Source of the DNA: a virus
Lineage: Duplodnaviria; Caudoviricetes
IMG/VR virus record: IMGVR_UViG_3300032225_001145
Span: 32,001 to 96,000 of that record
DNA: 64,000 bases
Direction: 5' to 3' (one strand)
Positions within the stretch are counted from its first letter, which is position 1, and every line of letters starts with the position of its first letter. Below are positions 10,848 through 32,044 of the stretch, piece after piece. The position numbers and the translations under genes were made by a program. The notes beneath the pieces were generated by a model that saw nothing but the letters and a program-made list of their open reading frames with translations, had not been told where the DNA came from and made no database searches.

Positions 10848-10924
10848 GGGCCGGTAGCTCATTCGGTTAGAGCAGAGGACTCATAATCCTTTGGTGGAGT
10901 GTTCGAATCACTCTCGGCCCACCA
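10848..10924 (+). tRNA. tRNA with CAT anticodon, probably tRNA-Ile2 (lysidine type)
   Basis: Full cloverleaf, GA-CT-CAT-AA-TC anticodon arm, paired G1-C72, A73, CCA; lacks initiator features. Confidence 0.85.
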
Positions 10925-10939
10925 GAACTAAATAACTTT

Positions 10940-11107
10940 ATGGAACAGAACAAAAAACCCGTTGATAAGTTTTATTACTCTGAAAAAGAGTGGGATCGTT
11001 TAGGATGCGGCCCGTTGCCAGAAGAGCGTGATCGTAATAAGTTTCAAGAAGCCCACGCAAAAGGAAATCCTAAGATTGACGGCAAAGCTGTAAAAGGATA
11101 TAATTAA
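10940..11107 (+). CDS. Small hypothetical protein (55 aa)
   Basis: MEQNKKPVDKFYYSEKEW...; TAAATA-N5-ATG. Confidence 0.55.
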   Translation: MEQNKKPVDKFYYSEKEWDRLGCGPLPEERDRNKFQEAHAKGNPKIDGKAVKGYN

Positions 11108-11237
11108 AATGGGTATGTTAGGTTTATTAGTTTTCGTAGCAATACTATTATATGCTCTAATAGAATTAAAAGATTATTATAAAGATAATCAATAAAGATA
11201 TGTTTTACTACGTTTATCAGATTACTAATCTTTGTTA

Positions 11238-11586
11238 GTGGTAGGCTCAAAACAAGTATACCACAAAAAAGAATTGTAGTTTAATGCTTTGAAAGAAAGC
11301 GGTTGCGGACCCGGGGGCGGAGCCCGGCACCTCCACCATAAGCAGTTTGGTAACAGAATGTTTATGATGGGGGTGAATTAGGATCGACGTGGCAGTAAGT
11401 ATGGATAAGATCTACACAGTAGGCGATGACTGTCAATCAAGCAAATCTCGTAAATGCAAAAGCATCTACTGGCGAAGTAACTGTTTCAGCTAAGAACCTC
11501 AAGTTCCGCACTTTAGCAGCCAAAGGCCAATCTTTAGCAGTTTAATCACTGCTTAGGGCAGGACATGCCTCGTAACAGAAATCACC
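11238..11586 (+). ncRNA. ssrA: Circularly permuted (two-piece) tmRNA; outer ends approximate
   Basis: 3' half GACCCGGGGGCGGAGCCCGGCACCTCCACCA (ends 11338) precedes 5' half GGGGGTGAATTAGGATCGAC (starts 11369); 7-bp acceptor with G3:U70; tag frame 11456-11545. Confidence 0.9.
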
Positions 11587-11613
11587 AGAACCCGCTTCGG
11601 CGGGTTTCTTTTT
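11587..11613 (+). terminator. Rho-independent terminator
   Basis: AACCCGC-TTCG-GCGGGTT hairpin plus T tract. Confidence 0.9.
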
Positions 11614-11707
11614 ATCATAATGTACCAAAATCTAGCAATTTTTGCAGCCCAAGACAAAAAAACAATAAATAGTAGTTCAGCATTACAAACATAAAGGAAA
11701 TTAACGC

Positions 11708-12451
11708 ATGAAAAAAGTACTATTAGCATTATTTGCAATCGCTGGCTTTACAGCCGCTCACGCACAAGTATCAGGCAATTTAAGTTTGACTTCTGATTAT
11801 CGTTTCCGCGGTATTAGTCAATCTCAAAATGCTCCTGCCGTACAAGGTGGTGTTGACTATGCTCACTCAAGTGGTTTGTATATTGGTAACTGGAACAGTA
11901 GTGTTTCAAGCCAAGTATATACAAATGGCGCAGGTGTAGAGTCTGACTTGTATGCTGGATATAAGAAAGATATTTACAAAGGTCTAACATTAGATGTTGG
12001 TTCTTATAACTACTTCTATCCACGTGCTACAGCAACAAGAACTGGTTCAAACTTTGATACATACGAAGCTTTCGTTGGTCTAGGTTATGGTCCGGTTGCT
12101 GTTAAGTATAGTCAAACTTTAGGTAATGGTTACTTTGGTACCGTTAACGCTAAAAACACAAACTACACACAAGCTGACATTGCTCAATCATTTGAGCCAT
12201 TGAGTGCTAAGTTGAAGAATTTGAGTTTCTTAGCTCATTATGGTCGTACTAATGTTGCTAACAGTTCAAATTTGGACTACAACGACATCAATGTTGGCTT
12301 AGGTTATGCTTTGCCAAAAGATTGGTCAGTAAATGCCAAGTACTATACAAATAGTTCTATGACAAGTACTTTCCAAACAGCTAATAATGTAAATGGTCAA
12401 AAACTTTACAAAAACGCTGTTGTTGCAACATTAACCAAAACATTTGAATAA
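11708..12451 (+). CDS. TorF-family putative porin (outer-membrane beta-barrel)
   Basis: Signal peptide, SDYRFRGISQ, PAVQGG, GLYIGNWNS, DLYAGY; Phe near the C-terminus. Confidence 0.85.
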   Translation: MKKVLLALFAIAGFTAAHAQVSGNLSLTSDYRFRGISQSQNAPAVQGGVDYAHSSGLYIGNWNSSVSSQVYTNGAGVESDLYAGYKKDIYKGLTLDVGSYNYFYPRATATRTGSNFDTYEAFVGLGYGPVAVKYSQTLGNGYFGTVNAKNTNYTQADIAQSFEPLSAKLKNLSFLAHYGRTNVANSSNLDYNDINVGLGYALPKDWSVNAKYYTNSSMTSTFQTANNVNGQKLYKNAVVATLTKTFE

Positions 12452-12815: not shown

Positions 12816-12844
12816 TTGACAAACAAACATAAATACCTTACAAT
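12816..12844 (+). promoter_or_regulatory. Sigma70-type promoter of the leader transcript
   Basis: TTGACA-17nt-TACAAT. Confidence 0.8.
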
Positions 12845-12854
12845 ATACAATACT

Positions 12855-12965
12855 ATGAAAAACATTATTCATTCTTCATTATTACAGCCAACACAAGGCG
12901 GGCTAGCCTATTGGGCAGTGGATTGTGGCATGATTAATGTACTAGAAGCAAAGGGTCTTAGTTAA
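12855..12965 (+). CDS. Putative attenuator leader peptide (36 aa)
   Basis: MKNIIHSSLLQPTQGGLAYWAVDCGMINVLEAKGLS*; its last codons overlap the antiterminator strand. Confidence 0.7.
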   Translation: MKNIIHSSLLQPTQGGLAYWAVDCGMINVLEAKGLS

Positions 12966-13024
12966 TATTGTATTAATATATTTTTTAACCAAGACCCTGG
13001 AACTAAACACTCCAGGGTTTTTTT
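12952..13024 (+). promoter_or_regulatory. Transcription attenuator: mutually exclusive antiterminator and terminator
   Basis: 12952-12965 pairs with 12985-12998 (13/14 bp); terminator ACCCTGGA-N9-TCCAGGGT plus T tract shares 12994-12998. Confidence 0.75.
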
Positions 13025-13044
13025 ATTTTGAAAAGGAAAGAAAG

Positions 13045-13203
13045 ATGATAGATTATACCAAATTGAATGATCGTATTATCGAGCAGGCTTATTCGAACAT
13101 TTTGAGTCCAGAAGAAAAACGCAAACTGATCGAAGAAAAATTTAATCGGGCTGCTCAATATTATAAATCGGTACAAGCACCAATCTACCCAATTAAGGAC
13201 TAG
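13045..13203 (+). CDS. Small hypothetical protein (52 aa)
   Basis: MIDYTKLNDRIIEQAY...; AAGGA RBS; first gene after the attenuator. Confidence 0.6.
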   Translation: MIDYTKLNDRIIEQAYSNILSPEEKRKLIEEKFNRAAQYYKSVQAPIYPIKD

Positions 13204-13229
13204 ACAAAGTAGTTGAATTGTAGTATAAT
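13201..13229 (+). promoter_or_regulatory. Possible sigma70-type promoter
   Basis: TAGACA-17nt-TATAAT. Confidence 0.6.
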
Positions 13230-13398
13230 GTGTTATAGGAAACGAGATCCTGGTCTGCACGTAAAACATGGGCCAAATGGGCGGGCACTAAGATGAAACT
13301 CCTTGTGTGGGGCGAAAAATCAGTGTATAGTAAAGCGCATTGGACGATCCAAGTTATTGGAAGCAAACATCATAAGTGGCCAGTGCGTTTTACTATAT

Positions 13399-13485
13399 GC
13401 ATCGGTGGGTGAGTGGCTAAAACCATCTGACTGTAAATCAGACGCCTTAAGGGCTACGAAAGTTCGAATCTTTCCTGGTGCACCA
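13399..13485 (+). tRNA. tRNA-Tyr(GTA)
   Basis: TCTGA-CT-GTA-AA-TCAGA, long variable arm, CCA. Confidence 0.95.
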
Positions 13486-13534
13486 CTATAAAATGGTCGG
13501 CTCTTAAACATGTGCTAGTAATCTTAACAATAAC

Positions 13535-13612
13535 GGGGCGGTGGCGGAGTGGCCCAACGCAAGGGACTGCAAATCCCTAAAACCGTCAGTTCAAATCTGA
13601 CCCGCCCCTCCA
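13535..13612 (+). tRNA. tRNA-Cys(GCA)
   Basis: AGGGA-CT-GCA-AA-TCCCT, U73, CCA. Confidence 0.95.
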
Positions 13613-13616
13613 TTTT

Positions 13617-13693
13617 GGTTTGGTAGTTCAATTGGTCAGAGCACCGCCCTGTCACGGCGGAAGTTGCGAGTTCGAGTCTCGTCCAGACCGCCA
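13617..13693 (+). tRNA. tRNA-Asp(GTC)
   Basis: CCGCC-CT-GTC-AC-GGCGG, G73, CCA. Confidence 0.95.
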
Positions 13694-13856
13694 AGAATGT
13701 CGCCCGACCTAGGGGTTAATACTAGGGGTTGCTGACTCGCCATAGCAGTTAGGGTTAGGTAGATTAGACAAAAATCTCCACGCAGGTTGTAGCGGATACA
13801 ACTAACAGTGACAACTCAAGCCCGGGGCTCTACGACAATGAGTAGCCGGGCACTTC

Positions 13857-13932
13857 GCTCCCATCGTCTAGAGGCCTAGGACACGACCCTTTCACGGTCG
13901 GTACGCCGGTTCGAATCCGGCTGGGAGCGCCA
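13857..13932 (+). tRNA. tRNA-Glu(TTC)
   Basis: CGACC-CT-TTC-AC-GGTCG, CCA. Confidence 0.95.
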
Positions 13933-13950
13933 AACATTAAATAGTAATAC

Positions 13951-14025
13951 GAGTCCCTGATGTCAACGGTAGCATGTCGGTCTCCAAAACCGATCGTCGG
14001 AGTTCGAATCTCTGGGGATTCGCCA
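13951..14025 (+). tRNA. tRNA-Trp(CCA)
   Basis: TCGGT-CT-CCA-AA-ACCGA, G73, CCA. Confidence 0.95.
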
Positions 14026-14531: not shown

Positions 14532-15527
14532 ATGGAAAAATTAATAGAAATAAAAAATTCAAATAATAGTATATATGTCTACTGGATTCTCACTGATTTT
14601 TGTAATCAGCATTGTACATATTGTCCGCCAAGTTTAAATAATGCAACTTACGCAAATAAACCAAATTTTATAACTGATGCTGATATCGATCGATTTATTG
14701 ACAAATTAATTGATACTAAGAAAAAAACACAAAAAAAACTGATTGTTGGTATAGCAGGTGGAGAACCCACCACTCATAATAAGTTTCCTGATATTATAAA
14801 AAGATTATGCGACTATGCTTCTATAGAAGTAGTAACTAATGGGACACGGAGCGTTAAGTGGTGGAGTGAATTGCCGGCATTGCCTGACTTAACTGTTTTG
14901 TCGTTACACCCAGAATATTATGATGCTAAAAAAATAAAAATTAATGAACTGTGTGATTTTTTAACAGAAAATAATAAAGTTATACAATTTAACTTAATGT
15001 GCCATCCAGCAATGTGGGACAAAACTATGACAATGTTTAACGATATAGCTGAAAAGTATAAACAATTTATAATTCCAAAAGTTATACAAAATATGGATAA
15101 TAGTGGCGTTATGAATAATCAAGAAAAAAAAATATATAATTATTCAGTAGAACAATTGAATTTTATCAAAAATCATCAATATAAAATACATACGACTGAT
15201 AAAACTAGAAAAGCTAGCATCAGCATATATGCCGACTCAACTTCTAAAAAATGTAATCCAAACGCATTGATGGCGGATGGGCAACATTATTTTAAGAATT
15301 GGAAATGTTCGGCAGGCAGCGAAGGAATATCTGTTTCGCCCGAAGGAAAAATTTTAGCCGGTATTTGTGGAGCTAAACAATTAGGAACTTTGCAGACTAC
15401 TTTTGAATTTCTCGATGACTATTTAAATTGCCCAAAAGTTAATTGTGCCTGCCCCGGAGACATTGTTCTTAATAAGTATGATCCAACACTGGTTAGACAA
15501 AATACTAGTGATTCTAAAATTGAATAG
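14532..15527 (+). CDS. Radical SAM protein with C-terminal SPASM/twitch-like Cys-rich domain
   Basis: CNQHCTYC, GGEPT, TNG; WKCSAG...C...CPKVNCACPGD. Confidence 0.85.
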   Translation: MEKLIEIKNSNNSIYVYWILTDFCNQHCTYCPPSLNNATYANKPNFITDADIDRFIDKLIDTKKKTQKKLIVGIAGGEPTTHNKFPDIIKRLCDYASIEVVTNGTRSVKWWSELPALPDLTVLSLHPEYYDAKKIKINELCDFLTENNKVIQFNLMCHPAMWDKTMTMFNDIAEKYKQFIIPKVIQNMDNSGVMNNQEKKIYNYSVEQLNFIKNHQYKIHTTDKTRKASISIYADSTSKKCNPNALMADGQHYFKNWKCSAGSEGISVSPEGKILAGICGAKQLGTLQTTFEFLDDYLNCPKVNCACPGDIVLNKYDPTLVRQNTSDSKIE

Positions 15528-29244: not shown

Positions 29245-29337
29245 GGAGAGCTGGCCGAGCGGTCGAAGGCACCCGCCTACTAAGCGGGCATGGACCTAAA
29301 CAGTCCATCTGGGGTTCGAATCCCTAGCTCTCCGCCA
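29245..29337 (+). tRNA. tRNA-Ser(ACT)
   Basis: CCCGC-CT-ACT-AA-GCGGG, long variable arm, G73, CCA. Confidence 0.92.
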
Positions 29338-31986: not shown

Positions 31987-32044
31987 AGGAGGGTGGTGTA
32001 GTAGTTGTACACAGGGCTGTGTTCGCACCGCCCTCCTACCTTTT
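31987..32044 (+). terminator. GC-rich hairpin / probable terminator
   Basis: AGGAGGGTGGTG pairs with CACCGCCCTCCT, followed by short T run. Confidence 0.5.

Follow-up and report, generated by a model that had tools for sequence, protein, structure and literature searches.

A putative ribosome-dependent attenuator with read-through as its default state ahead of the tRNA genes of uncultured lake phages

Organization of the locus

We analyzed a 64,000-nucleotide stretch of DNA (the window; positions 32,001 to 96,000 of IMG/VR record IMGVR_UViG_3300032225_001145) from the 124,971-bp single-contig genome of a Caudoviricetes phage, and in it a short leader module that precedes a block of phage tRNA genes. 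A preliminary description of this region had reported a promoter (P1), a small leader open reading frame (ORF), a helix of 13 out of 14 pairs involving the last codons of this ORF, an intrinsic terminator that has five bases in common with the helix, the tRNA genes and a second promoter-like site (P2). We locate each of them in the sequence at the same positions (Table 1). The leader ATG lies 10 nt past the -10 box of P1 and is not preceded by a Shine-Dalgarno sequence. The ORF uses 29 distinct codons for 18 amino acids, contains no run of a single residue and encodes Tyr-Trp-Ala-Val-Asp-Cys at 12909-12926. In the terminator, positions 12994-13001 pair with 13011-13018 ahead of the T stretch, and the bases common to helix and terminator are 12994-12998. 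A simple terminator scan passed over this site because its 9-nt loop exceeds the limit of the scan. Folded alone, the window's version of the module scores z = -2.3 against shuffled sequences. Behind the terminator follow a small gene (ORF2), a structured RNA that we call RNA X and the tRNA block.

Table 1. Positions of the leader module and of the features behind it in the window
Feature	Position	Strand	Basis or remark
Promoter P1, sigma-70 type (TTGACA, 17-nt spacer, TACAAT)	12816-12844	+	11/12 consensus matches
Leader ORF, 36 sense codons and stop, nearly leaderless	12855-12965 (ATG 12855, TAA 12965)	+	ORF reading
Trp codon (TGG) of the leader ORF	12912-12914	+	invariant in 61 variants; 37 nt upstream of the antiterminator arm
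Antiterminator 5' arm (last leader codons and stop codon)	12952-12965	+	13/14 pairs with 12985-12998
Antiterminator 3' arm (final five bases double as start of the terminator stem)	12985-12998	+	pairing with 12952-12965
Intrinsic terminator: 8-bp stem (11 bp with flanking A-U pairs), 9-nt loop, seven T	12994-13024	+	-14.3 kcal/mol
ORF2, 52-aa protein, strong Shine-Dalgarno sequence, first gene behind the attenuator	13045-13203	+	in all relatives; dN/dS 0.26
Promoter-like site P2 (TAGACA, 17-nt spacer, TATAAT), overlaps the ORF2 stop	13201-13229	+	11/12 matches
RNA X, conserved structured non-coding RNA (~170 nt), interval from ORF2 to the first tRNA	13233-13398	+	in 55/57 relatives
tRNA block: Tyr, Cys, Asp, Glu, Trp	13399-14025	+	ARAGORN and Rfam

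Our analysis is computational throughout and combines sequence comparison with RNA folding. Relatives were collected from IMG/VR, first with the 84-aa protein encoded upstream as the query and then with ORF2 protein alignments. These searches returned more than 80 uncultured viral contigs, some of them larger than 300 kb, with 61 distinct versions of the leader; the related phages that carry the module (about 60) come from lakes. Among GenBank phages we found no relatives apart from tRNA matches, and an ORF2 homologue could not be found in bacterial or archaeal genomes. Results on the leader refer to the 61 variants, whereas counts on the downstream context (RNA X, promoters and terminators behind the module) cover 57 relatives.

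Competing hairpins and the leader frame

P1 is present at the same place in all variants (10-12 of 12 consensus matches, with a 17-nt spacer in all but one), and every variant contains an intrinsic terminator, a stop codon inside the antiterminator hairpin and an overlap of 4-12 nt (median 7) between the antiterminator 3' arm and the terminator 5' arm. The distance from the stop codon to the terminator is held to 17-32 nt, and that from the start of the hairpin to the stop codon is 8-50 nt. The antiterminator is the more stable hairpin in 59 of the 61 (medians are -23.7 and -13.9 kcal/mol, respectively), so the terminator could hardly ever form without something opening the antiterminator. MAFFT alignments of the antiterminator region, inspected with RNAalifold, were poor and out of register, and we thus used alignment-free tests of arm pairing. 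When every 5' half was paired with every 3' half across 17 lineages, the cognate arms summed to -378 kcal/mol compared with -246 ± 16 kcal/mol for permuted combinations (z = -8.2), a value reached by none of 100,000 permutations. The arm sequences differ among lineages but remain complementary: in the alignable part of the helix 98.8% of cells are paired, with the outermost pair being A-U in 20 and G-C in 13 sequences. The bases common to both hairpins form standard pairs with both of their partners.

The leader ORF is open in all 61 variants and spans 32-53 codons. It is leaderless in 21 of them (ATG 6-11 nt past the -10 box), and the remaining variants have a leader of 45-60 nt in which a 5' hairpin is followed by an A-rich stretch. 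ORFs of such size and placement arise in 2-8% of shuffles per lineage, and Fisher's combined p for the open frame is 3e-9 over 18 lineages, a value that is optimistic given their common ancestry. The encoded peptide is barely constrained and drifts almost neutrally: its ratio of nonsynonymous to synonymous substitution rates (dN/dS) is 0.68, compared with 0.26 for ORF2 in the same genomes, and leader differences are spread evenly over the three codon positions (0.40, 0.33 and 0.39), whereas ORF2 shows a clear third-position excess. The conserved GGGT motif in the antiterminator 5' arm falls in different reading frames among relatives, and therefore this part of the ORF is constrained as RNA and not as peptide. 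RNAalifold returned no consensus structure common to the variants in the body of the ORF, which argues against an aptamer there. A frame that stays open without preserving its product, and whose stop falls at a set point of an RNA switch, has the look of a regulatory leader peptide.

Two other roles for the peptide were considered. A precursor of a ribosomally synthesized and post-translationally modified peptide, for which a double-Gly in the peptide and a radical S-adenosylmethionine gene at 14532 might speak, was rejected on the grounds of the near-neutral drift and of a C-terminal part constrained as RNA in varying frames. An arrest peptide similar to TnaC or SecM is unsupported, as the distance from the Trp codon to the stop varies from 10 to 33 residues and no common arrest motif is seen. 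As a separate observation, the arms of the short hairpin at the transcript start of the non-leaderless variants (L061-L107 and similar), which precedes the A-rich stretch, co-vary; an AAGGA sequence in these variants is weak and distant, so that a normal Shine-Dalgarno sequence is missing there too.

The preliminary description had read the module as an instance of ribosome-coupled attenuation, to be examined by constrained folding and in homologous leaders. This logic is borne out by the comparison: the variants conserve the promoter, an ORF that stops inside the antiterminator and a terminator overlap, all with co-variation, and the placement of the ORF is kept in 61/61. Constrained folding of the window's version agrees with it. 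In free RNA, or with a ribosome placed at the start codon or at the Trp codon, the antiterminator forms 13 of its 14 pairs and the terminator 3 of 8; with a ribosome at the stop codon, the antiterminator forms none and the terminator all 8. We could not find an anti-antiterminator upstream, neither a 1:2 nor a pause hairpin. The strongest duplex available upstream is weak, at a median of -9.4 kcal/mol, and the upstream ORF pairs less stably with its cognate 5' arm than with swapped ones (z = +4.4). Because an anti-antiterminator is missing, read-through would be the default, and termination would depend on a ribosome having arrived at the leader's last codons.

We consider it likely, if by no means certain, that the module attenuates transcription in a ribosome-dependent manner and reads through by default. 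Host RNA polymerase would start at P1 and transcribe the short leader ORF, whose last codons provide the 5' arm of a stable antiterminator; the 3' arm would borrow the first bases of the terminator stem. If the ribosome is still short of the end of the ORF when the 3' arm is made, the antiterminator would form, the terminator would be blocked, and transcription would continue into ORF2, RNA X and the tRNA genes. A ribosome that has arrived at the stop codon would keep the 5' arm open, so that the terminator folds and transcription ends at about position 13024. Output would thus be low when translation is fast and high when it is slow or failing, and translation capacity and the downstream products are predicted to be coupled by negative feedback. 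Such a device should report how promptly ribosomes translate, and the module probably ties the supply of the downstream products to the translation performance of the infected cell. Sequence comparison supports the two mutually exclusive folds, the co-variation of the arms, the retention of the open frame and the constrained spacing from stop codon to terminator; we infer from them that the leader is translated, that a ribosome decides the fold in vivo and that a physiological signal slows this ribosome.

The invariant Trp codon and the genes behind the switch

Only the start codon and a single Trp codon are invariant across the variants. Within five residues of this Trp, Cys is enriched six-fold and Ser two-fold. 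Charged residues are under-represented there, with Asp at 0.2-fold, and Tyr shows its background frequency. According to the preliminary description, the leader would sample many tRNAs and correspond to the Tyr, Cys, Asp, Glu and Trp tRNAs of the array. The variants do not support this: leader residues follow the first tRNA block no more closely than expected (415 residues match, compared with 410 expected, at 36 informative loci; z = 0.28). If the leader has a sensing or pausing codon, the invariant UGG is the likeliest one. One possibility, to which we give some though clearly less credence than to the attenuator reading as such, is that the switch works as outlined above but senses only charged tRNA-Trp. 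A ribosome waiting at UGG would free the antiterminator, read-through would rise when Trp-tRNA is scarce (by starvation or by cleavage of tRNA-Trp), and the phage tRNA-Trp would close the loop. In line with this, TGG is the sole invariant sense codon in otherwise drifting peptides, and in 60 of the 61 the antiterminator arm begins 19 nt or more downstream of it, so that a stalled ribosome would leave the arm free. tRNA-Trp is found in nearly all arrays with enough sequence, but is no more constant there than several other tRNAs. The neighboring Cys residues would also fit, Trp and Cys tRNAs usually being among the scarcest in bacteria. However, known amino-acid leaders contain a run of regulatory codons and not a single one, and the near-fixed distance of the Trp from the start (codon 17-25 in 59/61) would be needless for a sensing codon. 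The uncharged, hydrophobic surroundings could mean a role of the nascent peptide instead.

Returning to the attenuator with a read-through default, we asked what it would control. The module heads the tRNA array in nearly all relatives, which agrees with the proposed placement of an attenuator upstream of the tRNAs; in the relatives, the array found here comprises as many as 37 tRNA genes on the same strand, with Tyr most often first. No strong promoter lies between the module and the first tRNA in 39 of the 57 relatives, a promoter follows RNA X in 14, and a terminator-like site between ORF2 and the first tRNA is found in one. This family-wide lack of an intervening strong promoter (39/57) and terminator (56/57) therefore places the switch at the head of a tRNA operon. 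The preliminary description had cautioned that P2 could drive the tRNAs independently and leave ORF2 as the main regulated target. P2 is real in this phage, where the tRNAs probably also have their own promoter, and a promoter before RNA X is common to four variants (4/57, the window included, the others belonging to two other variant groups); the caveat does not extend to the 39 relatives in which a strong promoter before the first tRNA is missing.

ORF2 encodes a small, basic protein that is predicted to fold into a helical hairpin (predicted local distance difference test score, pLDDT, of 86) and has no match in Pfam, PHROG, the protein atlas or, using Foldseek, the PDB. Every relative carries ORF2 behind the module with a strong Shine-Dalgarno sequence. 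We see no separate ORF2 promoter in the interval from the terminator to this sequence. In RNA X, compensatory changes are seen at 16 of 18 predicted pairs, and the motifs AACGAG, GGGCGG and GAT are invariant (alignment A8; for example in L066 and L069, just past ORF2); its long hairpin stops 1 nt short of tRNA-Tyr. Rfam gave no family match for RNA X or for the leader and returned hits at chance level only, both in the window and in one distant relative. ORF2 and RNA X always co-occur at the head of the array and may thus form a protein-RNA pair. The terminator loop (13002-13010 in the window) is 8-9 nt long and, despite a varying stem, follows A-Y-TAAA-M-AC in most variants, and a loop of RNA X (13256-13268) has a similar TAAAACA core. 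The likeness of the two loops may mean that one factor, possibly ORF2, binds both.

These loops bear on a second and unlikely explanation, in which a trans-acting factor and not the ribosome alone sets the fold. The likeliest such factor would be ORF2, which always lies behind the switch: by binding the terminator loop and the similar loop of RNA X it would favor termination and regulate itself, as in the TRAP, PyrR or ribosomal-protein leaders, and the leader ORF would be at most a helper. The unusual size and kept form of the terminator loop would fit such binding, yet the conservation may stem from common ancestry, and our searches linked ORF2 to no RNA-binding fold or family. Moreover, this explanation has no account of an ORF that is kept open with its stop codon always inside the antiterminator.

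We regard it as improbable that the leader is a stand-alone small gene, encoding a micro-protein or a small RNA and bounded by a promoter of its own and a structured 3' end, that the hairpin overlap has no regulatory meaning, and that other signals drive ORF2 and the tRNAs: the strong P1 and the terminator, the promoter-like site past ORF2 in the window and a peptide that is partly conserved (around the Trp, and in an Asp-Arg ten codons past it that is kept in 43 variants) would be in keeping with such a gene, but ORF2 has no promoter between terminator and Shine-Dalgarno sequence, the dN/dS and length range (32-53 aa) of the leader argue against a functional protein, a small RNA would not keep an open frame, and both the overlap of the hairpins and the higher stability of the antiterminator recur with near-complete regularity (61/61 and 59/61).

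Several points weigh against a ribosome-dependent attenuator that controls the tRNA genes. Termination requires the ribosome to be no more than about 45 nt from the polymerase, which seems demanding for a leaderless ORF without a Shine-Dalgarno sequence, and we did not identify a pause site in the leader. The large conserved terminator loop may mean that another factor also acts on the switch. As P2 lies behind the switch, the tRNAs of this phage may be made largely independently of it. Finally, the p-values are optimistic because the lineages in the statistics are kin.

A number of neighboring features were noted along with the array. The 163-nt spacer between tRNA-Asp and tRNA-Glu (13694-13856) has no tRNA or Rfam match; a gap of equal size is kept in the related contigs L001 and L002, and it could hold a decayed tRNA or another small RNA. 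Upstream of the module lie a permuted (two-piece) transfer-messenger RNA (tmRNA; 11227-11636) and a tRNA-Met (10848-10924), with consensus promoters of their own at 11076 and 10803, respectively, and the order tRNA-Met, tmRNA, attenuator module, tRNA array recurs in several relatives. Positions 11708-12451 encode a 247-aa outer-membrane-type protein with a signal peptide (Pfam Gcw_chp, E = 2e-47), which hints at a proteobacterial host. At 29245-29337, ARAGORN predicts a tRNA-Ser with the anticodon ACT, an unusual unmodified-A34 anticodon.

Relation to known systems and meaning

The module resembles the trpL, hisL, thrL, leuL, pheL and ilvL leaders of enterobacterial amino-acid operons in having a short ORF in the 5' leader, a strand common to antiterminator and terminator, and, as predicted here, a fold that is decided by the position of a ribosome. 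It differs from them in codon content, with one invariant Trp codon in place of a regulatory run, and in its targets, which are a small protein, RNA X and phage tRNA genes and not biosynthetic enzymes. In classical trp-type leaders, an upstream helix captures the antiterminator 5' arm when nothing is translated. An untranslated trp leader thus terminates, whereas the module here, which has neither a 1:2 helix nor a pause hairpin, should read through. The Rfam models of amino-acid leaders all remained below threshold (Thr_leader 19.1 bits, threshold 55; His_leader 18.1, threshold 49; trpB motif 22.9, threshold 59).

Ribosome-mediated attenuators that respond to translation inhibition include the Firmicutes resistance leaders of vmlR, bmrCD and lmo0919 and the Tn916 tet(M) leader with its rare codons, the latter reportedly proposed as a reader of the aminoacyl-tRNA pool. 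As predicted for the module, a short ORF in these leaders reports ribosome movement, and a slowed ribosome shifts the choice between terminator and antiterminator. They differ from the phage module in sequence, host and target, and they usually contain an extra upstream helix that is broken by the stalled ribosome, whereas here a missing or late ribosome is predicted to suffice. T-box riboswitches likewise tie the choice between terminator and antiterminator to tRNA status, but they bind uncharged tRNA directly and need no translation. We found no match to the T-box family (RF00230) up to an E-value of 10 over 1.1 kb, and the antiterminator is a plain hairpin without a T-box bulge.

Our literature search did not find a published attenuator ahead of tRNA genes in phages or ahead of tRNA arrays. 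Closest among published systems is the trn tRNA array (L-array) of Anabaena sp. PCC 7120, which is induced by translational stress (PMC8421152). Like the arrays studied here it is an accessory array of many tRNAs, and its expression goes up when translation is impaired. Its control is exerted at the promoter, where direct repeats are bound by the ribbon-helix-helix repressor TrcR, and no leader peptide or terminator is mentioned (PMC10272220). The L-array is thus a cellular plasmid array under a promoter repressor, whereas the module here is a putative phage attenuator.

The reasons proposed for phage tRNA genes, which are still debated, include codon compensation, surviving the decay of host tRNAs and escaping tRNA-cutting defences (PMC10264068, PMC11555353, PMC11464382). 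A broader and rather speculative picture, which we rate below tRNA-Trp sensing, is that the module serves as a closed-loop supply controller of the phage translation kit. Decay of host tRNAs, or their cutting by defence nucleases, would make ribosomes lag on the leader, chiefly at UGG, and raise read-through into ORF2, RNA X and the tRNA array, and restored decoding would close the switch. ORF2 and RNA X would possibly be a new protein-RNA pair for tRNA maturation, repair or protection that feeds back on the terminator loop.

The module points to two constant companions that merit study, a 52-aa protein and a structured RNA. If our reading is true, a switch that raises output when ribosomes slow would mean that the phage makes these products on demand. 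It would also extend leader-peptide attenuation beyond amino-acid and resistance genes, with its default logic inverted and in a large group of uncultured lake phages.

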